A stretch of DNA of 64,000 nt, taken from NCBI GenBank assembly GCA_963824995.1, contig CAWGRK010000017.1:11143-75142 (forward strand), read 5' to 3'. Origin of the DNA: an uncultured Actinomycetes bacterium (GTDB lineage: Bacteria; Actinomycetota; Acidimicrobiia; Spongiisociales; DATADW01). The first letter of the stretch is position 1. The number at the start of each line of letters is the position of its first letter. Shown piece by piece: positions 1 through 64,000 of this stretch. The notes under the pieces were generated by a model, which saw only the letters and a program-made list of their open reading frames with translations, was not told the origin of the DNA and did not search any database. Both the position numbers and the translations under genes were made by a program.

Positions 1-2
1 GG

Positions 3-44411: not shown

Positions 44412-44513
44412 CGGCCCGCTCCCTTGTGCTGGTCGGGCCGTACACGCCGGCCGACCAGGCCGAGGGGGCTGGAGGACCCGCCCCTTCGGGCACCCCCATT
44501 TCGGTCCGATTCC

Positions 44514-44534
44514 GCCGTCTGCCGTCCGCCGTCT
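44514..44534 (+). repeat. tandem heptamer array (GCCGTCY) x3 abutting the ALDH stop codon
   Basis: gccgtct gccgtcc gccgtct. On the ALDH coding strand it reads TAG-ACGGCGGACGGCAGACGGC. Confidence 0.9.
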
Positions 44535-45965
44535 AGCGGAGCGTGAACACCACCGTCTGCAGGTCGGTGAACTCCTCGATGCGCTGGCGGCCCCATCCGG
44601 TGTCGGTGCCGGCGGCACCGCCGAAGGGTTGGAATGTCTCCCAGAAGTCGGTGGAGTCGTTCACCACGACGGTGCCCGAGCGGATCCGGTCGGCGTACCA
44701 CCAGGCGCGTGACAGGCTCTCGGTGAACACCGCCGCCTGCAGCCCGAGCCGGCTGCGGTTGGCGAGGGCGACCGCTTCCTCGTCGTCTTTGACGGTGAGG
44801 ATGGGGACCACCGGACCAAACGATTCTTCTTGGGCGATCATGCTCTCCTCGGATACGCCATCTACCACGGTGAACTCGTAATAGAGGTCGGTTGGGTGCC
44901 CCGATGCCCTGCCGGCCACCGACGCAGGATCTCGGCGCCACGCTCCCGGGCATCTTCGAGATGGCGGTCCATCTTCGCGGCGGTAGGAGCGTTGTTGAGC
45001 GGCCCCATCGTGGTGTCTTCGTCGAAGGGGTCACCCAAGCGGACCACCTCCGCCGCCTTGAGCGTCGCCGCCACGAACTCGTCGTGGACCTCTTCCAGCA
45101 CCACGACGCGCTCGGTGGCGCAGCAGACCTGACCGGCGTTGTAGTAGGCGCCGTAGACCGCCGCCTCGGCGGCGGCGGCCACATCACCGTCTCCGGTGAC
45201 GATGAGCGGGCCATTGCCCGACATCTCCATGATCGAGCGCTTCAGTCCCATCTGGGAGACGATGCGACGCCCCGTCTGCGACGACCCGGTGAATCCGATG
45301 GCGTCCACCCCGGGGTGGGTGACCAGTGACTCGCCGATATCGCCGCCGCCGGGGATCACGTTGATTGCTCCCGCGGGGGCTCCTGCGTCGTCGAAGACCT
45401 TGGCCATCTCGAGGAGCGCCCAGCAGGTGAACTCGGGTGGTTTGACGATCATGGCGTTCCCGGTGGCCAGGCCCGGGCCGACGTACTCCATAGGGATCAT
45501 GACCGGGAAGTTCCAGGGGGTGATCGCCGCCCATACCCCCACCGGGCGTCTCACGGTGAACATCCTCCGGTTCCGTTCCGTGGTCGGGATCAGGTCCCCG
45601 CTCAGTCGCTTCACGTCCTCGGCGGCGATCTGGAAATAGTCTCCCGACTCGGCGATGTCGTCGATCGCCTCGGCGTGGAACGGCTTCCCCTGTTCGAGGG
45701 TGAGGATCCGGGCTACCTCGTCCACACGCTCCTGCCACAGCTCGTATATCCGGAGGCACAGATCGGCACGCTCAAACGCGGTCCAGTGCCTCATCTCAGC
45801 TGCGGCTTCCCTGGCGGCGGCAACCGCTCTGTCGATATCTGCCTGCGAGGCCTTGGGGACCGTGTAGATGTGCTCGCCAGTAACCGGAGAGCGGACCTCG
45901 TAGCTGTCGCCGCCGGTTCCGTCGGTCCAGCCACCCGCGATGTAGAGCTGCAGATCGACCGCCAC
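44533..45965 (-). pseudogene. NAD(P)-dependent aldehyde dehydrogenase, frame break(s) at about 44915-44925 as sequenced
   Basis: GAGGAGG RBS 7 nt before GTG 45965. AAITPWNFP, FTGSSQTG, EMSGNGP, GQVCCATER, then the frame change, then EESFGPV. Two +1 insertions 12 nt apart would restore ...EILVGGRRASGHP. Confidence 0.8.
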
Positions 45966-46052
45966 GGCCGTACCTCCTCGACCCCTTTCTGCTTTCTGAA
46001 GCCGCCAAGTTACCGAGGCCGGAACCGCAAGGGCGGCGCCTACCGTTTCCTG

Positions 46053-47160
46053 GTGGTGAAGAAACTCGCCGTCGTTTTGGCTCTCCTGCTGGTCGCCGGG
46101 CGTGTGGCCGGCAGGCGAGTCCACCACCACGCTCGAGGCCGACGCCACCACGGTTCCTGCAACGACTCCGACCACGGTGGCCGCCTCGTCGTCCACCACC
46201 GCTGCGGCCGAAACCACCACCTCGACCCCGACGACCTCGGCAGCGCCCACGACGACCGCGCGCCGGCGTCCGAGTCCTGCCGGTGTCTGATCGGCAACTC
46301 GTCGGGGATCTTCTTCGCCGAACCGGGCGAGGATCCGCAACCGGTGGCCGACGGCCCGGTGATCGCGGTGCGCGACGACCTCGCCGGCGGGTTGGTGGTG
46401 CAATTCGCCGGGCCCGAGGGTCGCCCCGGCGTGGTATCGCACGTGCCCGCCCAGGGCAAGCCGTGGATACTCCTCTCTCCAGGGAGCGGCGGCTGGGTGA
46501 CTTTGGAAGATGTCGAGCGCATAGGGGGCGACGCCGACCGTGGTCGCCATCGTGTGGACCGGTTCGGCGATCCTGATGCTCAACGGGTGACCCTGGAAAC
46601 CGTGGACCTCACCAATCGGGAGCGGCGGCAGGTGGCAGTCGTCGGCGGGCACAGAGTCTGCGGCGGGACCGGTATCTGCCGACCCGGAGGGATACGTGCT
46701 GAACAGGTATCTCGAGGCCTCGTCGTGGGTGGAGTTCCTCGACCATGCAGGCGAAGCTGCGCCCGGCCCCGTTCAACCCCAATCCCGGAGTGCCAGGACG
46801 ATGTCTACCTGCCCCCGCTCGGTGGTGACTTCGGAAGATGGGGCCACACTCGCCTACCTGGTGACGGTCCCTGGTGAAGGCGTGGCCGACGGCGTCGACC
46901 TCGTCGTCGCCGATGCCGCCACCGGTGAGGAGTTAGCCCGCCAAGGTTTGCCCGTCGCCGGGTTTGCCACCGTCGGGGTGGACATCGTCGGAGACCTCGT
47001 GCTGGTCAACCGTCTCGCAGCCGGCCCCAGTGGTGAGCCCACCGAGCCGACCTTCCCCATGGTCTTCGACCTCGCCAAGGGTGAACTCAACGAGATCCCG
47101 ATGGCCGGTACCGGCTCGCTGGCGAGGACCGCTCCCGAGGTCGAGGGCTCCCTGCGCTGA
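46053..47160 (+). pseudogene. putative secreted/lipoprotein with a Thr/Ala/Pro-rich linker, at least 3 frame changes as sequenced
   Basis: Signal-like VVKKLAVVLALLLVAG is in frame 0. Linker ESTTTLEADATTVPATTPTTVAASSSTTAAAETTTSTPTT is in frame 1. Domain PVADGPVIAVRDDLAGGLVVQF is in frame 0. The C-terminus from YLEASSWVEFLDH is in frame 1. Confidence 0.4.
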
Positions 47161-47221
47161 TCGGAGCGGCCGGCTGGATTCGCTCGTTACCATCATTGTC
47201 CTGACCGCTAGGAGGCAGAAG

Positions 47222-48532
47222 ATGGGTTTCCAGGGCCCAGAGACGGCGAAGTGGTATCGGCGGGGGACCGATTCGTTGGTGAAGGGGACTTCGAGCATGT
47301 TCCGCTACTGGAGCGATGACGACACCATGGTCATCGCCCGAGGCGAGGGCGGCGCCGTCTTCGACATGGACGGCAAGCGCTATGTCGACTACCAGCTCGG
47401 TTTCGGTCCGGTGATCCTCGGTCATGGGCGGGCAGAGGTGGTTGCCGCCGTCGCCGAGGCCGCAGCCGACGGCACCACGTTCGCCATGACCCAGCGGCGT
47501 GAGATCGAGGCGGCGGAGGCCTTCAAGAAGGCGGTGCCTTGGGTCGAGCATCTCCGGTTCACCAACACCGGCACCGAGGCCACGATGCACGCCATCCGCT
47601 TGGCTCGGGGCTTCACCGACCGCGAGGTCGTAGTCAAGTTCGAGGGCCAATACCACGGGGTGCACGACACCGTGATGTTCTCCACCGCGGGAGCACCACC
47701 CGGGCATCTCGGCGCCCGTACCGCCCCTGTGCCTTGGCAGAACTCCTCCGGCATCCCCGAGGCGACCCGAACCACGGTGCGCACCATGCCCTTCAACGAT
47801 CTTGAGCTATTGGAGCGGCTTTTCGCCGACCAGGGCCGGCGGATCGCCGCCGTCATCGTCGAGCCGATGCTGGGCAACGCCTTCGGCATCATGCCCCAAC
47901 CCGGGTTCCTCGAAGGGCTGCGACGGCTCTGCGACGAATACGGCTCGGTGCTGATCTTCGACGAGGTGAAGACCGGGTTCCGGGTCTCTCTCGGCGGGGC
48001 CCAGGAGTTGTTCGGCGTCACCCCCGACCTGGGCACCTTCGCCAAGGCGATGGGGAACGGGTTCGCGGTGGCTGCGGTCGCTGGGCGCAGCCCGGTCATC
48101 GATGCACTCGGGGCAGGCGGGATCGGCCAGGCGGGTACCTACAGCGGCAATGGTGTCGCCGTGGCTGCAGCCAAGGCGACGATCGGCATCCTCTCCACCG
48201 GTGAGCCGTACGACAGGATCGACCAGGTGGGGACAGCATTGATGGAGGGGATCCGGAAGGTGCTCGCCGACCGCGGCGTGCCCGGGCACGTCACCGGCCA
48301 CCCGGCGATGTTCTCCATCTTCCTCGCCGAGGAAGAGCCCACCGAGTTCCGGCACGCGGTGAATCACGACGAGCCGAGGTACGAAGAGATCTGTGCCGGG
48401 CTCATCCATCGTGGGGTGATGCCCTGCCCGGACGCCCTCGAGCCATGGTTCACCAGTTCGGCCCATACCGACGAGGACGTGGCGCTCACCCTTCAAGCCT
48501 TCGACGAGGCACTGGCCGACACCGTTTCGTGA
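47222..48532 (+). CDS. class III aminotransferase (glutamate-1-semialdehyde aminomutase family)
   Basis: GGAGG RBS. RFTNTGTEATMHAIRLARG, FDEVKTGFR, FAKAMGNGF. Intact reading frame. Confidence 0.85.
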   Translation: MGFQGPETAKWYRRGTDSLVKGTSSMFRYWSDDDTMVIARGEGGAVFDMDGKRYVDYQLGFGPVILGHGRAEVVAAVAEAAADGTTFAMTQRREIEAAEAFKKAVPWVEHLRFTNTGTEATMHAIRLARGFTDREVVVKFEGQYHGVHDTVMFSTAGAPPGHLGARTAPVPWQNSSGIPEATRTTVRTMPFNDLELLERLFADQGRRIAAVIVEPMLGNAFGIMPQPGFLEGLRRLCDEYGSVLIFDEVKTGFRVSLGGAQELFGVTPDLGTFAKAMGNGFAVAAVAGRSPVIDALGAGGIGQAGTYSGNGVAVAAAKATIGILSTGEPYDRIDQVGTALMEGIRKVLADRGVPGHVTGHPAMFSIFLAEEEPTEFRHAVNHDEPRYEEICAGLIHRGVMPCPDALEPWFTSSAHTDEDVALTLQAFDEALADTVS

Positions 48533-49701
48533 GCCGGATCGCCCTGCTCGGTGCCGGGATCATCGGGCGGGTCATCGCCCGCGACCTGGCCACGTGGGAT
48601 CGGCCCGACGAGGTGGTGGTGGGCGATCTCGACCCGGAGAGGGCCAAGGCGGCTGGCGGACGAGCACGGCTTCGACGGGGCGGATGTTGACGTCCTCGAC
48701 CCCGATTCGCTCGATGCCTTTCTCACCGGCGCTTCCGTGGTGGTCAACGCCGCCCAGTACCACGTCAACCTCGCCGTCATGGAGGGGGCGCTTCGGGCTG
48801 GATGTCACTACCTCGACCTCGGCGGGCTGTTTCACACCACGCGACGTCAGCTGGAACTGGGGGAGCGGTTCGAGGAAGCCGGGCTCAGCGCGGTCCTCGG
48901 AATCGGTTCCTGCCCCGGGATCGCCAACGTCCACGCCGGCGATCTCGGTTCGCGGCTCGACCAGGTCCGCTCGGTTCGGATCTTCAACGGCGCCACGATC
49001 GACCCCTCGGATCGGATTACCTGGCCCTACTCGCTCTGGACGATCCTCGACGAGGTCACAGAGCGCCCGGTCGTCTTCCGCGGCGGTCGAGTTCGTCGAG
49101 GTGGAGCCGCTTGTCCGAAGAGGAGCCGTTTCCCGTTTCTCGAACCGATCGGGCATGCCACCACCCACCTCTCGCTCCACTCGGAGGTGGCCACCATCCC
49201 GGTGAGCCTGGCGGCGAAAGGGATCGAGCGGTGCGAGTTCAAGATCCGATTCTTCGGCCTGTCCGAACCCGCCCTCCGCAAACTCGCCTTCCTCGCATCG
49301 ATCGGTCTCGCCTCCACCGAACCGAGGACCGTCGGCGAAGCGAGAGGGGTGATCCCCCGCCGCCTCCTCGTGGACCTGCTCGAGGAGACGGCCCCGCCTC
49401 CTCCCGAGCACGCAGGGTTCAAGGACATAGCGACCGTGGCTGAGGGCACGAAGGACGGTGTTGCGACCAGGCTCCGCCTGGATGCAACGGCTTGGCCGTC
49501 ACCCGAATTGGGAGTCGGCGGCGGAACGGTGGCGGTGGCAGCCCCGCCCGCCGTCGTCGCCCGATGGCTGGCCGGCGACGCGCTTACGCCCCCGGCGTCC
49601 ACCCCCCGGAGACCGTGATCGATCCCCGCCCCTTCTACGAGCAACTGGCCCGTCGCGGGATCACGACCACCCTCAGCGAGGAGACCGTCCTGGCGGGATA
49701 G
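48529..49701 (+). pseudogene. saccharopine dehydrogenase family protein, at least 5 frame changes as sequenced
   Basis: VSRIALLGAGIIGRVIARDL (GTGA overlap with the upstream gene). Frame breaks lie near 48650, 49088, 49113, 49135 and about 49590. The conserved EFVEVEPL / SEEEPFP / FLEPIGHATTHLSLHSE segments sit in three successive frames. Confidence 0.7.
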
Positions 49702-49714
49702 ACGGCAGACGGCA
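49701..49714 (+). repeat. tandem heptamer array (GACGGCA) x2 starting at the stop codon of the saccharopine-dehydrogenase-family gene
   Basis: taGACGGCAGACGGCAgc. Confidence 0.8.
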
Positions 49715-49811
49715 GCAAATCCCACGCTGCCTGACTCCCGACGTGGCGTAATCACCCCCTCCGCTCGCTCCGCTCGCGCCTCCCCTCACCGGGGTAGGCA
49801 GAAACCTGTCT

Positions 49812-49844
49812 CCTTCCTTCCGTCTTCCGACTTCCGTCTTCGCC
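49812..49844 (+). repeat. tandem heptamer array (CTTCCGT-like) x4, inverted relative to 49701-49714
   Basis: ccttc cttccgt cttccga cttccgt cttcgcc. The reverse complement contains GACGGAA units. Confidence 0.8.
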
Positions 49845-49944
49845 GGCGCCAAGACATCCGAACCCACCCGCATTGGCCTGCCTGCTCGATTTGGAGGTCT
49901 GGCTACCCTCGTCGTCGTCGCCTTGCCGTCTAGGGGGATTGCGA

Positions 49945-50792
49945 ATGGGAACCGCGATGACACTCGGGTTCCGGACCAGGACCCGCATCATGACTCGCGT
50001 TCTCATCGGGTCGTGCATTCTCTCCACGGCGGCGTTCGTGCTCACATACGTCCTCGCCGAGGACACCGAGCGCTTCTTCGCCTGGACGGTGCAGCCCCCG
50101 CTCAGCGCTGCCTTCTTCGGTGCGGGTTACGGGGCCGGTGCTCTTCTCGCGGGCCTTTGCCTTCGTGAGAGGTCATGGGCGCGGATTCGGCCAGGCGTGC
50201 TCGCCATCATCATCTTCGCCACCCTCACGCTGGTCGTCACCCTTGCTCCACCGTGACCGGTTCCACTTCGGAGCGGGCGGCTTCGCCGAGGGCTCGGCTT
50301 GGCTCTGGCTCGCCATCTACGTCGTGTTCCCGATCGCCGGGGTGATCGCACTCGTCACCGAGTGGCGTGCGCTCGGCAGCGACCCTCCTCATGCGGGTCC
50401 ACTCCCCTCGGCACTCCGCGGAGATCCTCGCCATCCAGGCTGTCGTGCTTGGTCTGCTCGGTTTGGGTCTTCTGCTCTTCCCCGAGCCAGTGGCCACCTT
50501 CTGGCCTTGGACACTGACGCCTCTCACCGCTCGAGCGATCGGCGCCTGGCTGCTCCCGATCGGGATGGCCGGGGTGTGGGTGGTGTTCGAGAACGACCTG
50601 GGGCGGTCGCGGATCCTTTCAACCGTCTACGTCTTCTACGCCATCCTGCTGATCGGTGCGCTGGCGCGGTTCCGGGAGGAGGTCGACTGGAGCCACTCGT
50701 CGGCTTGGGCGCTGGCGGCGATGGTGGCACTGATCCTGGTCACCGGGATCGCCGGGAGGGTGGCGGCGGCTCGGCTCCCCGCCGGAAGTTGA
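49945..50792 (+). pseudogene. polytopic membrane protein (unknown family), 2 frame changes as sequenced
   Basis: TM-rich segments are found successively in frame 1 (to about 50250), frame 2 (about 50255-50385) and frame 0 (to 50792). Confidence 0.5.
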
Positions 50793-50835
50793 AATCCCAC
50801 CGCACCTAGGGACAAGGCTCTTCTAACCTGCCGCC

Positions 50836-52053
50836 ATGGACCTGACCCTCCGCCCGGTCACCGAGGACGAACTTCCCGAATTCGCCCGCTGGGTGAGCCC
50901 GGCTTTTCACGGCGACTCAAGGACGAGGATCTCGAGGACTGGAAGATCTGGTTCGAGATCGAGCGCAGCCTGGCCGCCTTCGATGGCGACCGGATCGTCG
51001 GGACCGCAGGTGCCATGAGTTATGAGCTCACCGTGCCCGGAGGCAGTCTTCCCGCCGCCGGCGTGACCGTGGTCTCGGTGCGATCCACCCACCGGCGACG
51101 CGGCGTGCTGTCGGCCATGATGCGCCACCAACTCGACGACGTCCGTGACCGGGGTGAGGCGATCGCCATCCTCTGGGCTTCGGAGAGCATCATCTACGGC
51201 CGGTTCGGCTACGGGATGGCTGCTCCCAGACGTGACGCTCGAGATCGAGCGCCGCCACGGCCGGCTGGCGATGCCTTTCGAGTCCCCAGGTGAGATCCAA
51301 CTGCTCGAGCGCGAAGAGGCCGAAAAGATCCTTCCCTCGCTGTACGAGCAGATCCGACCGACATACCCAGGGATGCTGGGAGAGGATCCCGAGCCGCTGG
51401 CAGCTCATGTTCAACGATCGGGAGAGCCACCGCGACGGCATGAGCTCCAACCGGTACGTGTCCTACGAGGAAAACGGCGAGTCCTTGGGCTTTCTCCGCT
51501 ACCGGGCAAAGGGGGAGTGGGACGAGGGTTTCGCCCGTGGAAAGGTGACCACGCCCGCAACTCATGGCGCTGACGCCCAACGCATACAAGGCGCTTTGGT
51601 CTCATCTGCTCAACCTCGACTTGGTGGAATCGATCGCCGCATACCACCGACCGGCCACGGAGCCGCTCGGCATGATGCTCGCCGACCCTCGCCGGCTTCG
51701 GAGCCAGGCTCAGCGATGGCCTCTGGCTGCGGATACTCGACGTGCCGACCGCCCTGGATACCCGGCGCTATCGCCAAGCGGGGAGCCTGGTCCTCGAGGT
51801 GGCCGACCCGCTGAGATACGCCGCCGGCCGGTTCCGGTTGGAGGGTGACGTCGATGGGGCCGAGGTGACGAGCACCGATGCCGAGCCCGATCTCACCCTT
51901 GACGCCGCTGCGCTGGGTGCCGCCTACCTCGGGGGCACCAGGGTCATGGCTCTGGCCGAGGCCGGTCTGATCCAGGGCGAGCCGGAGGCAATCCGACGGG
52001 CCGACATCATGTTCGGTTGGGACCGACCCACCTGGATTCCCTGGATTTTCTGA
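50836..52053 (+). pseudogene. Eis-like GNAT acetyltransferase with an SCP2-like C-terminal domain, about 5 frame changes as sequenced
   Basis: MDLTLRPVTEDELPEF; VSVRSTHRRRGVLSAMM...ILWASESIIYGRFGYG; LWLRILDVPTAL...YLGGTRV. The segments step through frames 1, 0, 1, 2, 0, 1. Confidence 0.65.
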
Positions 52054-52081
52054 CCGCGCTAGCCCGGTTAGCGTCGGGTCC

Positions 52082-53718
52082 ATGGCCAAGATCCACGGCG
52101 GTCAGATCGTCGCCCGGGCGCTGCGCGCCGAGGGTGTCGACGCCATCTTCACCCTCACCGGCGGGCACATCGTCCCCATCCTCGACGGGTGTGTCCAAGA
52201 GGGGATCCGAGTGGTTGATGTACGCCATGAGCAGGCCGCGGCCCACGCCGCCGAGGCCTACACGCGCCTCACCGGGCGGCTCGGAGTGGCCGCGGTCACC
52301 GCCGGTCCCGGGGTGACCGATGCCATCACCGGGGTGGCAACCGCCTGGTATTCGCAGACGCCGATGCTGCTCCTCGGCGGCCGTCACCTTCTCCGTCAAG
52401 AACTCAGGGGTGGACTCCAGGAGATGGATCATCCCCGGCTCTTTGGATCCCATCACCGCTTGGTCGGGTACCTGCTGGCAGGTGGAGAGGCTGGCCGACC
52501 ACGTTGCAGTGGCGGCGCGGCATGCATTTGCCGGTCGGGGAGCCCCGGTGTTCCTCGACATACCGATGGACGTCCAGTTCGACATGGTGGAGGAGACCGC
52601 GGTCAATTGGCCAACTCGATACCGGGTGACCCAGCCGAGCGGCGTCGACCCTGAGACGCTCGACAATCTGGTCGACGCTCTGGCGAAGAGCCAGCGACCG
52701 ATGGTCTTCGCCGGGGGAGGCCTGCGCGGTCCCGACGCTGCGAACCTGGCACGACCTCGTCGAGGCTCTGCAGGCGCCGGCATTCGTGAACAGCCGGGCG
52801 AGAGGTGCCCTCCCGTTCGGTCATCCATTGCTCGGCAACCATGCCCGGTCGCTCGCCTTTGCCGGATGCGACCTGGTGCTTGCGCTCGGGGTCGACTGGG
52901 ACTTCCGCACGTCGTACGGGGACAAGATCGGTGCGGAGGCGGTGGTGATCCAGGTCGATGCCGACCCGGAGAAGATCGGGTGGAACCGCTCGGCGAACAT
53001 CGGGGTCGTGGCCGACCCGGCCCGGGTCGCCACCCAGTTGGCCGACTGCTGCCGATCGCTATGCACGGACCGATACCCCCGGGTGGACCAAGGAGATCAT
53101 GGACGAGGAGGAGACCCGACAAGGCTGCCGCCGAGGCCGAGGCAGACTCCGACGACTCACCCGTCCACCCGCAGCGGTTTGGCCGCGAGGTCGGCGCGCT
53201 TCTTTGGCACGGACTCGATCGTCGCCGTGGATGGTGGCGACATCGTCTCGACTACCGCCCGCTGGCTCCAGGTCTCCACTCCGGGTCACGTGCTCGACCC
53301 GGGCCCGTTCGGGACGCTTGGCACCGGCGTGCCCTACGCCATCGCCGCCAAGGTGACGCACCCCGACAAGCTCGTCGGGATCGTGTTCGGCGACGGAGCC
53401 TTCGGCTTCAACGGGTTCGAGTACGACACCCTGGTCCGCCTCGACTTGCCCGTCGTCGGGGTCTTGGGCAACGACGGGGTGTGGAACAACATCCGGACCT
53501 TCCACCGAGCCATGTTCCCGGAGCGGCTCGTCGCCTCGGAACTCGGCCGCCGTCCCTACCACGCCGTGGTAAACGCCCTCGGCGGACACGGCGAGTTGGT
53601 CGAGGATCCCGCCGACCTCGCACCCGCCCTGGAGCGCGCCCGGGCCTCCGGCAAGCCGTCACTCGTCGATGTCCACATCGCCGAGACGATGCGGATGTCG
53701 AGCAACTACAGCCAGTAG
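52082..53718 (+). pseudogene. thiamine-pyrophosphate enzyme (acetolactate synthase large-subunit-like), 5 x +1 frame changes as sequenced
   Basis: VDAIFTLTGGHIVPILDG...VRHEQAAAHAAEAY...AGPGVTDAITGVATA; C-terminal TPP motif GTLGTGVPYAIAAK...GDGAFGFNG...LGNDGVWNN. Breaks lie near 52450, 52750, 53047, 53117 and 53199. Confidence 0.75.
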
Positions 53719-53721
53719 CAC

Positions 53722-53744
53722 GGACGGCGGACGGCGGACGGCGG
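53722..53744 (+). repeat. tandem heptamer array (GGACGGC) x3 starting 3 nt after the stop of the TPP-enzyme gene
   Basis: TAGcac ggacggc ggacggc ggacggc gg. Confidence 0.9.
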
Positions 53745-53807
53745 CCAATCCGAATCCGTCCCGACGTAGGAGGTTGTCTCGTTCCGTCCCCCGGAGGGGG
53801 GAAAGGC

Positions 53808-53850
53808 CCCGCTGCGCCAGCAGCGGGTAGGGGGCCGGCGAACTCCCAAC
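53808..53850 (+). repeat. 43-nt hairpin module, copy 1 (CCCGCTGCG-loop-CAGCGGG + TAGGGGG..CGAACTCCCAAC)
   Basis: ccccgctgcgccagcagcgggtagggggccggcgaactcccaac. Near-identical to 59795-59837. Confidence 0.85.
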
Positions 53851-53858
53851 TTCGGTAT

Positions 53859-53875
53859 GCCGCCGTCCACCGTCC
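53859..53875 (+). repeat. short inverted heptamer pair (CGCCGTC CACCGTC) closing the 53.7-kb element
   Basis: gc cgccgtc caccgtc c. Orientation is opposite to the 53722-53744 array. Confidence 0.6.
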
Positions 53876-53879
53876 AGAA

Positions 53880-53898
53880 CAGGCGGCAGAGCCGCCTG
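53880..53898. terminator. GC-rich hairpin between the convergent TPP-enzyme and uppP genes (candidate bidirectional terminator)
   Basis: CAGGCGGC-aga-GCCGCCTG, an 8-bp stem with a 3-nt loop. It lies 3 nt downstream of the uppP stop. No clear U tract. Confidence 0.4.
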
Positions 53899-53900
53899 CT

Positions 53901-54665
53901 CTACAACAGCACTATCAGGGCGAAGGTGCCGAAGACGAAGCAGTAGATGGCGAAGGGGAGCAGACCGACGGTCTGCAGGGCCCGCAACAGCAGGGCTATG
54001 GCGAAGTAGCCGGAAATCGCCGCTACCACCGTCCCGACCCAGACCTGCGAGGAGATCCCTCCGTCGTTTACCAGATCGACTACTCCGACCAAGCCGGCGG
54101 CAGCGATGGTGGGAATCCCAAGCAGGAATGAGAAGCGCGCCGCCTCCAGAGGAGTGAGTCCTCTCGATTCCCCGACGGTGATCGTGGTGCCCGAACGGGA
54201 GATTCCCGGGAGCAGGGCAACGAGTTGAACCAGACCCACCAGGAAGGCGTCGAGCGGTCGCGCCTCCTCCAGCCTCATCCGGCCCGAGGTGAGACGGCTC
54301 CCCACCACCAGGATGAACCCGTTGACGATAAGTAGCGCCGCAGCGACCCAGGCGATCGTCTGGAGTTGTTCGAGCGGTCCTATCAGCGGCAGGGCGGCCA
54401 CAGCCGGCAGCGTGCCCACGATCACCAGCAGGAGCATCCGCCTTGCCTCCGGGTCGGACCGGAACCGGAGCATGCGGACCAGGTCGGCGCGGAAATAGGC
54501 GACCACCGCCACCAGTGTCCCTAGGTGGAGCACGGCCACGGTGGCGAGATCGGGCGGCTCCACTCCGGGGAGCAGCGCCGGGATCAGGACGAGGTGGCCG
54601 TCCGAGGAGATGGGGAGGAACTCCGTTATCCCTTGGACGAGTCCCCACACGATGGCTTGCAGCAC
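53901..54665 (-). CDS. uppP: undecaprenyl-diphosphatase
   Basis: GITEFLPISSDGHL and PGISRSGTTI motifs, 8 TM helices. Intact reading frame. Confidence 0.9.
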   Translation of the reverse strand: MLQAIVWGLVQGITEFLPISSDGHLVLIPALLPGVEPPDLATVAVLHLGTLVAVVAYFRADLVRMLRFRSDPEARRMLLLVIVGTLPAVAALPLIGPLEQLQTIAWVAAALLIVNGFILVVGSRLTSGRMRLEEARPLDAFLVGLVQLVALLPGISRSGTTITVGESRGLTPLEAARFSFLLGIPTIAAAGLVGVVDLVNDGGISSQVWVGTVVAAISGYFAIALLLRALQTVGLLPFAIYCFVFGTFALIVLL

Positions 54666-54692
54666 GGGGCGGGGAGGTTAGCCCTCGACGTG

Positions 54693-55789
54693 CTACTCGC
54701 CGTTGTCCTGCCGTCGGGACGCAGCCCGACGACGATGACGTCGCGGCCCAGATCCAGGCGTCGATCGAGCCGGTGCCGACATTCAGAACCCGCACCTCTG
54801 GTCCTGGCCCGCCAACCGCCAGCCGCCAAACATCCCACGACCAGTCGACCGAGGCTTTGGGATCCACCGGGATCGACCACAGCCTCTCGGCTCGCATCGC
54901 CCAGACTTCGAGACGCGACCGTCTCCCGGGAGGTTCCAGGAGTAGGGCAATATGACGACTGTCGGGTGACCACCATGCCCGTGTGACATGGTCGGGCACC
55001 CAGGACAACTCGACCACGGTGGAGAGCATCGTGTCGGCGAAGGCGATCTCGCCCTGCCCGGCATCGAGCATCAGCCGCCCTCCGGGACCGACGTCGTGGA
55101 CCTCGGCACCCTCTCGGGTCCATACCGGTGCCCCGGTGAGGTCGAGCCGCCGCAGGCCCTGCATCGTCGCCGAGGATGAACCCCCATCCCCCCCAGCCCC
55201 GAAGCTGGACATTTCCCTCCAGCCGTGCCACCCGCCCGGTTCGGTCGTTCGCCCGAAGAATGGTCTGGTTGCCGACTCTCTCCGTCCAGGCGATGGCGCC
55301 GCCCACCTGATCGTGCCAGGCGGCACTGGTGACGTTGCGGGCCACTACGGCGAGGAGTCCCGAATTGCCCGCCCGGAGCACCCCGTTATGGGATAGCACC
55401 AGCATGCTTGCTCCCGGAGGCGTCGATGTCATAGGTGCCCGCGATGATCTCGAAGCGGCGGCTGGTGACACCGCGGTCCCATGGCCACCTGAAGAACTCG
55501 AGGACAGTCGAGTTGGTCACGATCGCTGCCAAGTCGGACCTCAGGCCCGGGATCCTCCCGGCCAGACCTGGCCCGATGACGGTCACCCCGGTCGTCGGGT
55601 GGTGGTGGCCACGGTCGGTGGAGGCTCAGGATCGGCCCGACCCACGGTGGCCGGGTCCCATCTCGACACCACCAGGGCCACCAGGCCAACCACAACGGCA
55701 ACGGCAACCAGCGGAAACAGTGAGGGGCGGGGCGGCCTTACCGGGTCAGGCTCGACCCCGATGAGTGGGGGCGAAGTGGGTGCTGGCAT
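54693..55789 (-). pseudogene. membrane-anchored protein with a beta-propeller-like (TolB/WD-like) ectodomain, about 4 frame changes as sequenced
   Basis: ATG 55789, then TM LFPLVAVAVVVGLVALVV and a Pro-rich linker. Segments such as WSPDSRHIALLLEPPG and VDWSWDVWRLAVGG occur in shifted frames. The end point is uncertain. Confidence 0.4.
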
Positions 55790-55826
55790 GGTGCCTTGCC
55801 GGAACGCTATCCGATCGGGACCCGCC

Positions 55827-56380
55827 TCACGGCGTGAATCCACCCCCGAGCAGCACCACGGCACGGCCGTCGGCCACGGCCGCCGCCGCCGGAGCGGCAG
55901 CCTCGGCGGGTATGGCGACGAGCCCGGTCGGCTCTCCCGGGTTGAGCGGATCTTCGGGCATACCCGCCATGACCTTCCCTTCGACCACTTCGGGCTGTGC
56001 CGTCGATGCCCAAGCCGGGCAGCAGGACCAAGCGCACCGCCCCACCGGGGAGGGCGCCGGGAGGCAGCGGCACCTCCAGCGCCCACCAGTTGTCAGGAGG
56101 CTCGACTGCGTCGGTTGCTGACCAGCGCCGGCGACAACGGCTGCCCGGCCGGGATATCCACCAGAGCCATTCCACCGAGTTCGACCGTCGGAAGCACCCC
56201 TCCGGGTACCCGACGCCACTCGACTGAGCCCTCGTCCACCACCGTTCCGGCGGGGAGATCGATCCTTGCAAAGGGATGGTCCACCTCGGCTCTGGGGCGG
56301 ACTTCGATCCAGAGTGCCAGCCCAAGGATCGCAACCGCTCCGAGCCAGCGCAGGTAGGGCGGGCGCGTCAGCCAGAGCAC
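55827..56380 (-). pseudogene. SAF-domain protein (CpaB-like), 2 x +1 frame changes as sequenced
   Basis: TM WLGAVAILGLALWI, then a SAF-like IDLPAGTVVDEGSVEW...DIPAGQPLSPALV. It continues as ALEVPLPPGALPGGAVRLVLL (+1) and QPEVVEGKV...AVVLLGGG (+1). Confidence 0.45.
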
Positions 56381-56420
56381 CGCCGCAACGTATCGGTACA
56401 GGGCTCGGTAGGGAAGAGGG

Positions 56421-57204
56421 TCAGCCGGTGGCGCCCTCGAGGGCGGTGGCACACGGACAGAGCCGGTCGGTCCCCGAGGCACGTCGGGATGAGCAGCCGG
56501 ACCGCCTCGCGCAGCGTCCCCAGCGTCTCCTTGAAGAACTCGAGCACGGCGTGGTGGGTGACAGCCTCGATCTCGCCTTCGACGCCGACGTCGTAGTCGG
56601 TCACCACCGCGATGTTGACGTAACAGATCTCCAATTCCCTAGCGAGCAGAGCCTCTGGGATCTGGGTCATGTTGATCACCTTGAAGCCGGACTGGGCGAA
56701 CCAGCGGCTCTCGGCCCGGGTGGAGAAGCGCGGCCCTTGGATGACGACGGTGGCGCCCCCGTCATGGACGGTCGCCCCCGCTTCACGGCACGAGTCGAGC
56801 GCCAGCGGGCGCAACTCTGGGCAGTAGGGATCGGCGAAGGCGATGTGGACCACTTCCGGTCCGTCGTAGAACGTCGAGGGCCGGCCCCAGGTGCGATCTA
56901 CCAATTGGTCGGGAACGACGAGGTGGCCAGGGCCGTATTCGCTTACCAGGCTCCCGGCGGCGCAGGGTCCGATGATGCGGTCGACGCCAAGTTCCTTCAT
57001 CGCCCACGCATTGGCCCGGTATGGCACCAGGTGCGGTGGGTACTGGTGGTCGAGACCGTGGCGGGGGATGAAGGCGACTTCGACCCCGTCAACCTCGCCG
57101 ACGGTCGCCGGTGCCGAAGGTGCCCCATAGGGCGTATCTACCTCGACGGTGCGCGCCTCGTCGAGGAACTCGTAGAAGCCGGTCCCGCCAAAGACACCGA
57201 TCAT
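56421..57204 (-). pseudogene. mtnP: S-methyl-5'-thioadenosine phosphorylase, one +1 frame change near 56460 as sequenced
   Basis: MIGVFGGTGFY, FIPRHG, GPRFSTRAESRWF, VINMT. The expected C-terminus LCPCATALEGATG* is found in the +1 frame, ending at 56421. Confidence 0.8.
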
Positions 57205-57520
57205 TCGTCGCCCTTGTCGGACGAGCCCGAAGACGACGAGATGACGATCCGGCTTCTGCGCCGGCTTTGGCCTTCTTGCCGTCGCTCTTTTCCTTGTCCT
57301 TCTCCTTGTCCTTTTCCTTGGCAGGGCTGACCGAGGACGACTTGGAGCGCGAGTCGGTCGAGTAGAAGCCACTGCCCTTGAACACGATCCCCGCAGGATG
57401 GAACACCTTCTGGAGTGGGCCGCCGCACACTTCATGCTTCTTGAGCAGCTTCGCCGAGAACGGCTGGAAGATCTCGAATCGGTCCCCGCATTGTTTGCAG
57501 ACGTACTCGTAGGTGGGCAT
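57201..57520 (-). pseudogene. FmdB-family zinc-ribbon regulatory protein with a Lys/Glu/Ser-rich tail; frame change near 57245 as sequenced
   Basis: MPTYEYVCKQCGDRFE...HEVCGGPL. The tail ...SSSSGSSDKGDE* in a shifted frame ends in an ATGA overlap with the MTAP start. Confidence 0.65.
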
Positions 57521-57624
57521 ACCGCCGTCGTGTTGATTGGGGCGGGAGGTTAGTGGTCGGTGTGCGCCGCACGAAGACGGCCACTTAGACTCGCCGCCGT
57601 GATCCCCACCCGCCACCTCCACCT

Positions 57625-58440
57625 GTGACCATCGAGGTCGCCGTCATCCCGGCGGCCGGGACGGGGCACTCGGATGCGTCCGGCGACGCGGGTGGTCCCC
57701 AAGGCCTTGATCACGGTGATCGACCGGCCCGCCATCCAGTACGCGGTGGAGGAGGCGGCGCGGGCCGGTGCCACCGAGGCGGTGCTCGTGGTCGATCTGG
57801 ACGCCGGCCACCTCATCCAGCAGCACTTCCTCGTCGACGACAGGCTTCCCGGGTTGGAGCACGTCAAGGTGAGGCCAATGGTCCAGGAGGAGCCGCTCGG
57901 TCTAGGCCACGCCGTGCTCGAGGCTCGTGAGGTGGTGCACGACCGCCCGTTCTTCTGCCTGCTCGCCGACAACATCGTCCGACCCGGTGCGGACGTTCTT
58001 CCAGCCCTCGCCGCGGCCTACGACGGGAGTTCGGTTGTGTGCCTGCGCCGTCTGTCCGACGAGTTCCTCGACCGTTATGGCGTCATCGTCCCCGGGGAGG
58101 AGCGCTCCGACTCGGTTATCGAGGTTCGGGGCGCCGTCGAGAAGCCGGGTGCCGCCGCCGCACCCGTCGCGTCTCGGACTGATCGGCCGCTACCTGTTCA
58201 CCTCCGAAGTCTTCGAGGTCCTCTCCAAGCTCGAACCCGGTCACGGTGGCGAGATCCAGTTGACCGACGCCATCGACACCTTGGGTCGAGCCAACCGCTG
58301 CCTCGGTTCGATGGCCGACGAGGATCTGCTCGATGTGGGTACCCCATTCGGGCTTGGCCGAGGCGACCACGGTCCTCGGCGTGGCCCACGACGAATGGGG
58401 CGACGACTTCCGCCGACTGGCGGCGACGGTCGCAGGGTGA
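57625..58440 (+). pseudogene. galU: UTP--glucose-1-phosphate uridylyltransferase, 3 x +1 frame changes as sequenced
   Basis: AVIPAAGTG | TRMRPATRVVPKALITVIDRPAIQYAVEEA ... VEKPGAAAAP | SRLGLIGRYLFTSEVF...GGEIQLTDAI ... | EATTVLGVAHDEW. Breaks lie near 57665, 58150 and 58355. Confidence 0.8.
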
Positions 58441-59678
58441 TGCGCCCCCTGCGCGAGGCGCAGGCAAAGGTGCTCTCAGGAGTTAGCCGGCTCCCCGTCA
58501 CCGAGGTCGAACTGGGAAAAGCACTCGGTCTGGTGCTTGGCCGAAGAGGTGCGGGCACCCCACGACGTTCCGCCCTTCGCCAACTCGGCAATGGACGGTT
58601 ATGCGGTCATCGCCGCTGACGTCGCCGCGGCACCGGTGACCTTGGAGGTGGTCGAGGATGTCGCAGCAGGCCGCGTGCCCACCCTGTCGGTGACACCGGG
58701 GAGCGCCATCAAGATCATGACCGGTGCCACCATCCCCGAAGGGGCCGACGCCGTGGTCCCTGTCGAGGTCACGAACCAAGAGGGCGACCGGGTCGAGATA
58801 CGTGAGGCGGTGCCCAAGGGTGCCTCGGTGCGCGCCGCCGGGGGAGACATGGCCGCCGGGTCCACCGTGCTGCGGATGGGGGAGAGGATGGGACCGGCAC
58901 ACCTGGCGGTCCTCGCCTCCATCGGCGTGGCCAGGGTCAAGACATACGGCCGCCCCAAGGTGGCGATCATGTCAACCGGGGACGAACTGCGGCCCCCGGA
59001 GACAGCCGAACTCGATCCCGGACTCATCCGAGACACCAACCGTCCTCTGCTCGGTGCGCTCCTAGCCGAGGTGGGCGTCGAGGTGATCGATCTCGGCATC
59101 ATCCCCGATGACGAAGCGACGCTGCGCTCGGCGTTGCTGCGGCGGCTCGGATGAAGCGGACGCAGTGGTCACATCGGGCGGTGTTTCGATGGGGGACTAC
59201 GACCTGGTGAAACAGCTGGTCGGCGAGTTGGGCGGGCATGGAGGTCTGGCAGACGGCGATGCAGCCGGCCAAACCCTTCGCTTTCGGTCGCCTCGGCGGG
59301 ACCCCATTCTTCGGTCTCCCCGGCAACCCGGTTTCGGTGATGGTCGCCTTCGAGCAGTTCACCCGCCCTGCGCTCCTCCAGATGATGGGGTCCGAGAAGC
59401 TGTTCCGTCCCCGTCTCGAAGGCGTCCTCGTCGGTGGCGCCGATACCGATCCGGCCAAGACAGTCTTCCTGCGGGTGCGCACCTGGTGGGATGTTGGAGT
59501 CCTGTTCGCCGAGTCCGCCGGCGCCCAGTCATCCAACGTCCTCTCCGCCCTGGCCGCCGCCGACGCATTCGCCGTGGTCCCCGAGGGCGTCTCGACCGTC
59601 CCCGCCGGCGGCCCAGTGACCCTCGAGATGTTCCGTCAACCCGAATCCCGCACCGCCACCGAGGCACTGGCGCAATGA
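58440..59678 (+). pseudogene. moeA: molybdopterin molybdotransferase, 3 x +1 frame changes as sequenced
   Basis: FANSAMDGYAV, IMTGATIPEGADAVV, STGDEL, TSGGVSMGDYD, FGLPGNPVS. Breaks lie near 58535, 59140 and 59235. The start overlaps the galU stop (TGATG). Confidence 0.8.
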
Positions 59679-59713
59679 GACGGCAGACGGCAGACGGCAG
59701 ACGGCAGACGGCT
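59679..59713 (+). repeat. tandem heptamer array (GACGGCA) x5 starting immediately after the moeA stop codon
   Basis: TGA gacggca gacggca gacggca gacggca gacggct. Confidence 0.95.
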
Positions 59714-59794
59714 GGCGAACACTGCGAGCAGCGCCCCCTCTTCCGTTCATCCACAAAGGCTGAGGCCCCCCTGCGAAGAAGCGCCTTCCGTCTA

Positions 59795-59837
59795 CCCGCT
59801 GCGAAGCAGCGGGTAGGGGGGCTGCCGAACTCCCAAC
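59795..59837 (+). repeat. 43-nt hairpin module, copy 2
   Basis: acccgctgcgaagcagcgggtaggggggctgccgaactcccaac. It lies 24 nt upstream of the moaC ATG. Confidence 0.85.
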
Positions 59838-59860
59838 GGTGCTCGACTCTCGGCCCGCCG

Positions 59861-60356
59861 ATGAGCTTCTCCCACCTCGACGAGCACGGTCACGTCCACA
59901 TGGTCGACGTCGGCGACAAGGAGGTGACGGCTCGGACCGCGGTGGCCGAGGGCGTCCTGCGGATATCCGCCGAGACCCGCGACCAGCTCTTCTCGGGGAC
60001 CCTGCCCAAGGGAGACGCCCTGGCCTCGGCGCGGGTCGCCGGGATCATGGGGGCCAAGCGAGACATCGGAGCTGATCCCGCTGTGCCACCCGCTGCCGAT
60101 CGACTCGGTCTCGGTCGAGATCGAGCAGTGCGACGAGGGAGCCCGCCTAACGGCGACGGTTTCGACCACCGGCCGAACCGGCGTCGAGATGGAGGCACTG
60201 ACCGCGGTGGCCGTCGCCGGGCTGTCTCTCTATGACATGGTCAAGTCGGTAGAGCGGGGAGCGGAACTAGGCTCGGTTCATCTCGTGAGTAAATCGGGAG
60301 GGCGCTCAGGCCGCTGGGAGCGCGAAGTCCTTCCCAGCGAGAAGCTTGAACCGTAA
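59861..60356 (+). pseudogene. moaC: cyclic pyranopterin monophosphate synthase accessory protein, one +1 frame change near 60060 as sequenced
   Basis: HLDEHGHVHMVDVGDKEVTARTA...KGDALASARVAGIMGAKR | TSELIPLCHPLPI...GVEMEALTAV...YDM. Confidence 0.8.
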
Positions 60357-60403
60357 ACCGGGGCCTGGCTACGCTCCGCAAAACCAAGCGGGGCGGAGAC
60401 CAC

Positions 60404-60859
60404 TTGGAACCGGGAATCATCGTTTTGTTTGTCGTGCTGGCTGGCGTGTGGGGCGCCTTCCTCTTTCCGGAGGTGTTCGCCAGCCGAAAGGAAGCGCCGC
60501 TGAACACGACCGAGGAGTTCGGTCGGTGGACCTCGAAGCTGGCGTCCGTGCAAGGCCGAACCGCTCGGCGGCGCAATCGCGCCGTGCTCGAGGTGAACCG
60601 CAACCGGGTGCTGGCCCGGCGGCGCATCATGCTGGTGCTGCTTCTGCTGGCCGCGGTGGGGACGCTGGTGGCTGCGCTGATGACCGGTTCGAGAACGCTG
60701 CTCTATGTCCACATCGCCATCGATGCCGCCGTGGCGTGCTACGTGGCGATGCTGGTCCAGATCAAACAGCGGCGCCGCATGGAGTTGGCACAGTTCGACG
60801 AGCCCGAGGCGGCGGCCGACGAAACCTCCGCTCGGATCCGCGTCGTCGCCTCGCGCTGA
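60404..60859 (+). CDS. membrane protein (3 TM), unknown function
   Basis: TTG start. Hydrophobic helices IIVLFVVLAGVWGAFLF, MLVLLLLAAVGTLVAAL and HIAIDAAVACYVAMLV. Intact frame. Confidence 0.5.
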   Translation: MEPGIIVLFVVLAGVWGAFLFPEVFASRKEAPLNTTEEFGRWTSKLASVQGRTARRRNRAVLEVNRNRVLARRRIMLVLLLLAAVGTLVAALMTGSRTLLYVHIAIDAAVACYVAMLVQIKQRRRMELAQFDEPEAAADETSARIRVVASR

Positions 60860-60863
60860 TCCG

Positions 60864-61521
60864 GTGCCTTCTCCTGACCTGAGTTCGATCGAAGCTTCGG
60901 CTCGCGCCGACCTCGAGGCAGCCAATCGAGGGCGCGAAGTCGCCCTGGCTGACTGCCGAAGGATCATCCGCTGCTCCGCCAACGCCATACGAGCGATGCA
61001 CCGCGACGAGTGGGGCCGCGCCGAGGAGCTGATGAAGGCAAGCGGGAGAGACCCTCGCTGCGATCCAAGCCGACTTGACTCCAGCCCCGAGGTGCTCCAC
61101 GCCGGTTTCGTGGCCGACGCCGCCAAGGAATACGCCGAGGCCCGTCTGACCGCGGCGCTGGCTCGAGGGGCCGATCTCCCCGACCCATCGCGATCTGGGT
61201 GTCGACGTGGCGCCCTACCTCAACGGTCTCGGCGAAGCGGTCGGCGAGCTTCGCCGCCGCCTGCTCGACCGTCTCCGGGCCGGAGAGGTGGGCGAAGCCG
61301 AGGAGATCCTGGTGGCGATGGACGCAATAGTCGACCTGCTCGCCGGCCTCGACTTCCCCGACGGAATGACCGGAGGACTGCGCCGCACCACCGACGTCGC
61401 CCGCGCCCTGGTCGAGCGCTCGCGGTCTGATCTCACCACGACCGTCGTCCAGGAGAAGCTCCGGATCGAACTGCAACAGCGGCTTGGCAAGTCCAGCTAC
61501 CCGGGTACCAACCCCCGGTAA
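60864..61521 (+). pseudogene. translin-family-like protein, at least one +1 frame change near 61190 as sequenced
   Basis: KEYAEARL...(frame change)...VAPYLNGLGEAVGELRRRLLDRLRAG....AE..L..MD.I...L..LDFPD..TGGLRR..D. Confidence 0.5.
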
Positions 61522-61538
61522 ACTGACCGCCCCTACAT

Positions 61539-61612
61539 GGGGGTGTAGCTCAGCCCGGCAGAGCGCTTCCCTCGCACGGAAGAAGCCAGGGGTTCAAATC
61601 CCCTCACCTCCA
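61539..61612 (+). tRNA. tRNA-Ala (anticodon CGC), CCA not encoded
   Basis: Acceptor stem GGGGGTG/CACCTCC with the G3:U70 pair. D stem GCTC/GAGC. Anticodon stem CTTCC/GGAAG with loop CTCGCAC. T arm AGGGG-TTCAAAT-CCCCT. Confidence 0.85.
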
Positions 61613-62770
61613 CCGAAAGCCCTGGTCAGCAGGGCTTTTCGGCGGCTCGGGGAAGTTCGACGACGGCCCCGGGTCCGCGGCGGGTCCGCGGCTGGGTCCG
61701 CGGGACGCCCCAGGAATGCCTCGAGCCGGTCCTGCAACCTGGACGTCGAGCCCTTCCATCAAGTGCCCATAGACATCCATCGTCACCCGGATGGAGGAGT
61801 GCCCGAGTCGCTCCGAGATCACCTTGGGATGCTCAGCTTGGGCGATCAGGTGGGCGGCGTGGGAGTGTCGCAGGTCGTGGAAGTCGAGCCCTTCAGGCCG
61901 GCTCCGCTCCGTCGCCGGGGTCCAGAAACGCTGCCGCCACGATTCGGCGACTACCAGCCCGCCCTTCGGCGAGGTGACCACGATCGTCCTCCCCTGCCGG
62001 GTACAGCGCCAGGTGCTCGGCGATCCGTCGACCAGCACCGGGGGAGCGGTGACTGTCCTCCTCGAGTCAGCGGTCTTCAGTGGGGCCGAGCTGCGCCCTG
62101 CCGTTGGGGGCGATCACCTGACGCTCAACCCGGACCCGTGCGGGCAGTCGAGCAGAAGGAGATCCTCGACCTTCAGTCCGAAGACTTCGCCTTGACGTAA
62201 TCCGAGGGTGCCACCGCGACGCCCCCGATAGCGACGGTCGATGCTCCCTGCGATGTCCCATAGTTGATCGGGGTCACGATCCGCATCGGCTTGGACTCGT
62301 CGCGGGGAAGGTGGATCCCTACGCATCGTGTCCGTGCCAGGTAGCCGTCGACCACCGCCTGGTCGCAGACAATCTTCACCACCAGGTACGCCTTCTCCAC
62401 GGTGGCCGGCGCGTACCGCGGCCATCATTGACGACCAGGGCGCGGACGTGGCCGGGGTGATGTTGGCCAGGGCGGGCGCGGTCGCCGACCGCGGGGAGGA
62501 CGTGCTTGCGGAGAAGGCTCTGCTCGGTGAGCGACGAGTTGGCACGTAGGTGGACCCGGCCGGCCATCACCAACTCGGCGTAGTTGGAGAACGTGTGGCG
62601 GCCGAGCTCGCCGCGGTCCACGTCCCCAACCGGACCTTTCGCTCTTCGTCCTCCGCCCAGTGCAGGGCGTCCCCCTTCCGGTTGTGGAGCTTGGTGTGCT
62701 CCTTGCCATCGGCGCCCCGGTACCGGCCCTGCCAGCGATTGGTCTTCGGGTGCCTTCTTACGTGGGCCAT
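61604..62770 (-). pseudogene. tyrosine-type site-specific integrase, at least 6 frame changes as sequenced
   Basis: MAHVRRHPKTNRWQGRYRGADGKEH...; GLRQGEVFGLKVEDL; HDLRHSHAAHLI...LGHSSIRVTMDVYGHL. Pieces lie in all three minus-strand frames. The 3' end overlaps the tRNA-Ala 3' end by 9 nt. Confidence 0.75.
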
Positions 62771-62815
62771 CTCACTCTTTCTCTTCTTCCAGTCGTTGTC
62801 GGATACCGTTCGGTG

Positions 62816-63340
62816 TCAGCCCTTCCACTCCTTGGGAATCTGGACCTTGATTTGGGACAGCTGCTTCACCATTTCGGCGTGCGCGGCTACAGCCCGTTCG
62901 AGTTCACGTTGGACTTCGCCGGAAAGACCCGGAATGGGTTGTGCAGCCGGGTGAGGACTTTTCGCGCCAAGTAGGGTCCCTTCGCGCCTGACCTTCCGGG
63001 AATCCATTCCCGGGAGCGCCTGCCCGGCGAACCATTCCCACATCTCGCCACCGGTAACTCCCCGGTCTCCAACCTGGATCGACCTGTCGGGGTCCTCGAC
63101 GTCGGTGAGCAGGCTTGTCGGGCTCACCTCGAGCGCCGGCGAGCGTCACCAGCTCGTCGACCGAGACGGCGCGGTGCCGATGTTCGATCTTGGAGAGCAG
63201 GGTGGGGTCGATCTTCCAGCCGATGCTGAGACACCGCTCGGCTAGCGCCGGCTGACTCAGACCGCGGTTGCCCGAACCTCTCGGATACGCCTGCCGACCA
63301 CGTCGGCTATCGATTCTCCTTGATCCTTCTTGATTCCCAT
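62816..63340 (-). pseudogene. XRE-family helix-turn-helix protein, 2 frame changes as sequenced
   Basis: MGIKKDQGESIADVVGRRIREVRA | NRGLSQPALAERCLSIGWKIDPTLLSKIEHRHRAVSVDELVTLA | SPTSLLTDVEDPD.... Confidence 0.55.
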
Positions 63341-63565
63341 TCTGGCGGATCTTTCGCAAGGGTCTTGAAATATTGCCATCCCTCTCTTATCGTCCGGTCG
63401 AGCCGTGACGCCGGTAGCCTGCCGGGATGGGCGATTCACGGTGGAAGCCTTTCGATAGGCGCCGACCTCGCCGGAGTCCTTGGCTGCACGCCGGTGGCGC
63501 CCGCTCCTGTGGTTGCCGGGAGTGCAGGGGCTGATGAACCGGGTGGCCCTGGCGATCCGCTTTTC

Positions 63566-63694
63566 GTGGAGTACGAGAAACCCGCTCCGTGCCGGGCCTG
63601 TGGGAAGCCGGTGGTCCCGGGCCCGAGGGACAAGCGTCACTGTGACGATGTCTGCCGCCAGCGGACGCATCGGGCTCGCCTCGAGGTGTCATAG
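63566..63694 (+). CDS. small zinc-ribbon-like protein (42 aa), tentative
   Basis: VEYEKPAPCRACGKPV...RHCDDVCRQRTHRARL fits the pattern CxxC...C..CRQR..R seen in mobile-element small proteins. Start uncertain. Confidence 0.3.
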   Translation: MEYEKPAPCRACGKPVVPGPRDKRHCDDVCRQRTHRARLEVS

Positions 63695-63724
63695 CCGGCT
63701 CGTTCCAGGCGATACTTTGCCCTT

Positions 63725-63954
63725 GTGACGGAAGGCGCATGGTGGGAGCGTGCCGCTTGCCGCGATGCGCCGATCGACTGGTTCTTCCCGGCGCCGGGTG
63801 GGAGTGTCAGCCGTGCCCGGGAGCTCTGCGCCGGCTGTCGGGTGACGGTCGAGTGTCTTGAGTTGGCGCTCAAGATTCCGGCTACTGCGACTCGGGGATC
63901 TGGGCGGGGACTTCGGCTCAGCAGCGCCGCCGGCTGCGGCACCAGGTCCGGTGA
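63725..63954 (+). pseudogene. WhiB-like Fe-S transcription factor, one +1 frame change near 63890 as sequenced
   Basis: WWERAACRDAPIDWFFP......ARELCAGCRVTVECLELAL, then in the +1 frame GIWAGTSAQQRRRLRHQVR*. This gives 4 Cys plus the GIWGG-like turn and a basic tail. Confidence 0.65.
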
Positions 63955-64000
63955 GAGGGTCGGGGCGGACGAGCTTTCGGGTCTTCCCCCTACGTTGGCC

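Follow-up and report, generated by a model that had tools for sequence, protein, structure and literature searches.

We analyzed a 64,000-nt stretch from the draft genome of an uncultured Actinomycetes bacterium (hereafter the window; contig C17, positions 11143 to 75142), which changes abruptly at about 44.4 kb: to the right of this point almost every gene is broken by short insertions and deletions (indels), whereas to the left only about five gene-breaking events are found. The frame breaks are present in the deposited sequence; judged from sequence comparisons, they are almost certainly consensus errors and not mutations of the organism. The explanation that we consider very probable as a whole is that the draft contains blocks of good and poor accuracy and that the extra bases in it are often alternative alleles of variable sites. 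What is seen is an assembly artefact of a known kind rather than a feature of the biology, in a form that is unusually patchy and biased toward insertions. The window is divided as follows.

1100 to 44360, no strand: low-error domain with five gene-breaking +1 insertions (7517, 8572, 25541, 27918, and 32724)
44364 to 64000, no strand: error-rich domain with 2.7 private frame-breaking indels per kb, continuing to the contig end (the contig has 75,986 nt and ends 844 nt past the window)

The source genome comprises 2.91 Mb in 17 contigs, with 66% G+C. Three genomes of the same genus served as relatives for counting indels: the window is syntenic from approximately position 300 to 61,629 with G004 (84-90% identity), with G003 and, in part, with G002. 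The syntenic DNA was aligned using MAFFT in 39 anchored chunks, three- and four-way, with the G002 loci entered as reverse complement, and indels of a length not divisible by three that were private to one genome were counted. The right block, from 44.36 to 61.05 kb, contains 43-45 such indels in 16.1 kb (2.7 per kb), and they comprise 35 insertions and 8-10 deletions at sites where the three relatives agree with one another. The left 43.8 kb contains 26 (0.6 per kb; 11 are insertions), most of which lie between genes. A maximum-likelihood Poisson fit places the change point at 44,360 (2-lnL support interval, 43,390-44,910; likelihood ratio, 41.6). An earlier note on this DNA, made without database searches, had described a steep rise in frame disruptions near 44.9 kb, which these counts bear out. 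Its figure of about five events to the left of that point is right for gene-breaking events but not for all events, since the total of 26 includes intergenic ones.

As a reference-free check, a codon-usage model was trained on the long open reading frames (ORFs) of the genome itself and applied to all contigs in a seven-state Viterbi decoding (six frames and a non-coding state). From 44.9 to 62.1 kb, this model placed about 26 frame-switch sites, almost all of them in the +1 direction. It also recovered the five left-side breaks that had been noticed previously, at 7512, 8568, 25538, 27912, and 32730, and the alignment shows each of them as one additional base in the window. The private indels of the right block are distributed over its genes as follows.

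44534 to 45960, minus strand: aldehyde dehydrogenase (ALDH) gene, two private 1-nt insertions (44911 and 44923)
46053 to 47160, plus strand: gene for a Thr-rich secreted protein or lipoprotein, eight private 1-nt indels
47222 to 48532, plus strand: class-III aminotransferase gene, intact in one frame
48551 to 49690, plus strand: saccharopine-dehydrogenase-family gene, three 1-nt insertions and one 2-nt insertion
49943 to 50751, plus strand: membrane protein gene, two private 1-nt insertions
50840 to 52052, plus strand: Eis-like GNAT gene, four insertions and one deletion
52079 to 53716, plus strand: gene for a TPP-dependent enzyme, read in frames 2, 3, 1, 2, 3, 1, with three clearly private indels and two ambiguous ones in a poorly aligned linker
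53902 to 54690, minus strand: uppP, intact
54700 to 56402, minus strand: propeller-like gene and SAF-domain gene, five private indels not divisible by three (four in the propeller-like gene, one in the SAF-domain gene)
56403 to 57623, minus strand: MTAP and fmdB-like genes, three private 1-nt indels (two in MTAP, one in fmdB)
57624 to 60348, plus strand: galU, moeA, and moaC, seven private 1-nt insertions (three in galU, two in moeA, two in moaC)
60404 to 60859, plus strand: membrane ORF, intact
60860 to 61471, plus strand: translin-like gene, one private insertion (61039)

This tally, from ALDH to the translin-like gene, matches the list of broken genes in the earlier note, and the three genes that it singled out as intact (the aminotransferase gene, uppP, and the ORF at 60404-60859) each have a single frame and no private indel that breaks it. 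One detail had been misread: the event at about 49590 in the saccharopine-dehydrogenase-family gene, taken for a 1-nt deletion, is a 2-nt insertion at about 49,585 in the alignment.

The translated Viterbi segments are recognizable parts of ALDH, the saccharopine-dehydrogenase-family protein, the Eis-like GNAT protein, the TPP enzyme, MTAP, GalU, MoeA, MoaC, and others. Pfam profiles that begin in one frame piece are carried on in the following one; for example, the N, M, and C domains of TPP_enzyme follow one another in sequence, and positions 1-51 and 92-143 of the MoCF_biosynth profile lie in different frames. Intact TPP-enzyme orthologues of 546-572 amino acids from four genomes of other families are colinear with window frames 2, 3, and 1, and the frame-joining is therefore correct. 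Comparison with orthologues, which the earlier note had proposed as a check on its own frame-joining, thus supports it in close as well as distant relatives. In the linker of this enzyme (53040-53200), the indels are inconsistent among genomes, with an extra base at about 53,045 common to the window and G004 and another at 53,199 common to the window and G002; this probably reflects ambiguous alignment of an acidic linker that is poorly conserved. None of the model's segments has an in-frame stop codon that interrupts a frame which then resumes, in agreement with the previous observation that stops of the substitution type are missing.

Proteins that can be read through once the frame is shifted, mostly by +1, are also what pervasive programmed recoding in this block, by ribosomal +1 frameshifting or transcriptional slippage, would leave behind. 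However, no motif or homopolymer context is shared by the sites (at most 0.13 bit at any position within 6 nt of them), the sites do not recur in relatives, and deletions are mixed in with the insertions. Both strands are affected, and so is intergenic DNA, with insertions at 52060 and 49914. In relatives, and likewise in distant orthologues, these genes show no breaks. We consider recoding vanishingly improbable.

The window is not exceptional within its genome. Counting as candidates same-strand switches without a nearby stop codon, we obtained about 1,031 stringent frame-switch candidates genome-wide, of which 791 are +1 shifts and 240 are -1 shifts (3.3:1). They are clumped (variance/mean of 4.5 in 10-kb bins; rho of 0.40 between neighboring bins), and a two-state Poisson model separates states with 0.12 and 0.98 events per kb, the high state covering about 27% of the genome in blocks of 30 kb on average. 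A second copy of the error-rich region was not found elsewhere in the assembly. Gene function plays no part in where the frame-breaking indels fall, and even an indispensable gene is hit: the single-copy rpoC gene (C10:157001-160986) has nine private 1-nt indels and falls into about ten frame pieces, with Pfam Rpb1 domains 1, 3/4, and 5 in different frames, next to an intact rpoB (C10:161013-164391) in one clean frame of 1,126 codons. A cell cannot live with rpoC destroyed.

The case of rpoC bears directly on the possibility that the indels truly exist in the organism, here and in other blocks, as a very recent mass pseudogenization. On the one hand, the deposited sequence does carry them, and the conserved motifs are uneroded, so that a real event would need to be very recent. 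On the other hand, it would have destroyed rpoC nine times over and affected about 27% of the genome, in blocks that bear no relation to function, with a bias toward insertion, with almost no insertions that duplicate a neighboring base, and with neither nonsense substitutions nor larger deletions. Divergence from G004 by codon position, measured in tracked frames, is 5.5, 3.4, and 21.5% in the right block versus 6.5, 4.4, and 23.9% in the left, without any excess at the second position. Codon periodicity is thus kept in the broken genes, which indicates that selection has not been relaxed; approximately 43 neutral indels would predict a matching load of first- and second-position substitutions, and the absence of such a load argues against decay.

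The same genes also have private breaks in sister assemblies, at different sites. In a five-genome alignment of rpoC, there are nine private indels in the source genome, six in G003, four in G002, one in G004, and none in G005, the fourth sister genome in that alignment. Along the stretch syntenic with the window, indel patches occur in G003 at window positions 1-12 and 31-40 kb and in G004 at 19-24 and 35-38 kb. In the error-rich block of the window both assemblies are clean, and their own patches consist of dense, private, insertion-biased 1-nt indels. Because the sister assemblies are patchy at other places, the patches track the assembly rather than the biology of the locus.

Mass formation of pseudogenes during genome decay is known from Mycobacterium leprae, where many housekeeping genes are interrupted. 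True decay brings nonsense mutations and deletions of many sizes, is accompanied by relaxed selection, and leaves essential genes intact. The interruption of many housekeeping genes is where the likeness to M. leprae ends; none of these four marks is seen here. We therefore regard real pseudogenization as highly improbable, and the preference for sequencing or assembly error over gene decay in the earlier note is supported: the indels are private and patchy, they extend to rpoC, codon periodicity is kept, their spectrum is non-biological, and sister assemblies have their patches elsewhere.

The spectrum can be described for the 33 single-base insertions of the right block, in which the inserted base is A in 7, C in 9, G in 10, and T in 7. 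The earlier note had attributed most events to +1 shifts by an extra C or G; the +1 bias is real, but the preference for C or G is not. Only 3 of the 33 insertions duplicate a neighboring base, against 43-48% expected for random insertion. Natural 1-nt insertions, as seen in mutation-accumulation studies, arise mostly by slippage in runs of a base, and gene decay in bacteria is biased toward deletion. The spectrum of the window is opposite to natural mutation in both respects and unlike that of replication slippage. It is extremely improbable, in our view, that the insertions are nevertheless real, in part or in full, and belong to a lineage or subpopulation that recently acquired clustered, non-templated single-base insertions along tracts of tens of kilobases; insertions of this kind might stem from error-prone end-joining or localized hypermutation.

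A part of the inserted bases matches an allele of a relative at the adjacent site. An insertion was scored as a tandem allele when the inserted base equals a relative's allele at the adjacent column and the window itself bears the other allele there, polymorphism being judged from the sister genomes and not from reads. In the window, 12 of the 33 insertions (36%) are of this type, compared with 12-13% in controls (p = 2e-4 to 6e-4). The share rises to 69% in the patches of G004 (29 of 42; p ~1e-19); for G003 the count is 18 of 76. Overall, the match to the adjacent alternative allele is three to seven times more frequent than in controls, and no misplaced gaps were found among the tandem-allele cases. 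For example, at 49087 and again at 51387 the window has TC where the relatives have C, T, and C, and at 59233 it has CG where they have G, G, and C. We propose that both alleles of a variable site stand side by side because reads of two variants were collapsed and misaligned around a single-nucleotide polymorphism (SNP).

These observations are consistent with the following sequence of events. The assembly is a contiguous draft such as noisy long reads typically yield, a sequencing platform that we infer, and its base accuracy alternates between good and poor in blocks averaging about 30 kb; the window crosses from one state to the other at about 44.4-44.9 kb. Within poor blocks, extra bases were almost certainly introduced by the consensus caller. 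In many of these cases the extra base and the one next to it are alternative alleles of a single variable site, as expected if reads of two co-occurring variants had been collapsed into one consensus. Comparison with the relatives inclines us toward such a collapse of strains as the main cause of the artefact.

Several points weigh against this reading. For 21 of the 33 insertions, none of the three available relatives carries a matching allele. The insertion sites show no significant excess at third codon positions (phases 12, 10, and 8), which a pure origin from collapsed SNPs might predict. Finally, the boundaries of the patches are tied neither to dispersed repeats nor to contig ends. The first two points would also suit a plain artefact without any mixing of strains, in which the right block had too few long reads or no polishing with short reads and random noise was kept. 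The insertion bias of 791:240 and the near-uniform choice of inserted bases resemble raw long-read insertion noise as well. However, random insertion should duplicate a neighbor far more often than the 9-18% observed, and it does not account for the elevated match to the adjacent alternative allele. We take the plain artefact to be a genuine possibility, although one that we rather doubt.

Similar artefacts have been described. Consensus building from long reads requires high depth, and local population heterogeneity together with low depth hinders the polishing of metagenomes (10.1101/2021.08.23.457338). The raw errors of PacBio reads comprise about 8% insertions and 3% deletions (10.1101/2021.08.23.457338), an insertion excess that fits the bias seen here. 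In long-read drafts generally, genes are fragmented by single-base indels, which also lower completeness estimates and whose number varies with local depth and polishing (proovframe preprint, 10.1101/2021.08.23.457338; PMC9262707; PMC12007338); the breaks in the window resemble these. On the other hand, the errors described here are strongly biased toward insertion and lie outside base runs, unlike the homopolymer deletions most often emphasized for nanopore data, and they occupy sharply bounded blocks averaging about 30 kb. A closer parallel for the proposed mechanism is the mosaic assembly of Trypanosoma brucei: nearby allelic variants led to wrong read alignments, indel errors, and apparent frameshifts in a collapsed long-read assembly, and uneven variant density made the errors patchy (PMC8445201). 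That organism is a diploid eukaryote, whereas the corresponding haplotypes here would be co-occurring strains, in a pattern that is read from relatives and not from reads.

Several possible determinants of the block boundary were considered and do not explain it. Genome-wide, event density is independent of the distance to the contig end (rho = -0.02) and only weakly correlated with GC content (rho = 0.13). A dispersed repeat of 130 nt, with about seven copies, lies directly at the change point (44,368-44,497). It was considered as the element setting the boundary and rejected, because patch boundaries across the genome are no nearer to repeats than random positions are (19% versus 17.5%). This repeat is one of several short dispersed intergenic repeats of 60-270 nt, with 7 to about 22 copies per family in the genome, which in the window lie at 53721-53850, 59794-59854, 44368-44497, and 648-919. 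The family at 53.7 kb has dozens of copies in every genome of the genus that was searched. None of the dispersed repeats matched Rfam at the gathering score. Between window positions 45977 and 46214, G002 has approximately 24.6 kb of additional DNA in comparison with the window, G003, and G004, and its aligned coordinates jump there from 28,258 to 52,867.

Synteny with the relatives ends just past a tRNA gene, beyond which lies a small integrated element.

61539 to 61614, plus strand: tRNA-Ala(CGC), with synteny ending at 61,629
61700 to 64000, no single strand: small integrated element with an integrase gene (minus strand), an xre-like gene (minus strand), and whiB (plus strand), the reading frames also split

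None of the relatives aligns beyond 61.6 kb. The catalytic domain of the integrase is divided over several frames, and WhiB stops at position 47 of the 65 positions of its profile. The element adjoins tRNA-Ala(CGC) and reaches about 64,680 (window numbering) on the contig. A direct repeat of 123 nt with 79% identity, at 61,571-61,688 and 64,555-64,677, looks like a pair of candidate attachment sites of the element. A related copy is found on contig C2 at 322-324 kb (75-79% identity).

The breaks are of no consequence for the biology, but for users of this genome and its sister assemblies these results mean that about a quarter of the sequence carries at least approximately one, and locally 2.7, frame-breaking errors per kb. 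Within the error-rich blocks, gene calls, pseudogene counts, completeness estimates, oddities of start codons, and "novel ORFs" are unreliable. The estimated completeness of the source genome is 85%; for the same genus, four other contiguous genomes are at 72-81% versus 93% for a fragmented one (440 contigs). The same caution extends to other findings from the source genome and from its sister assemblies. The tandem-allele signature may serve as an inexpensive flag, needing no reads, for consensus errors that arise from collapsed strain variation. As for the genes between 44.9 and 64 kb, they are to be treated as intact but mis-sequenced.

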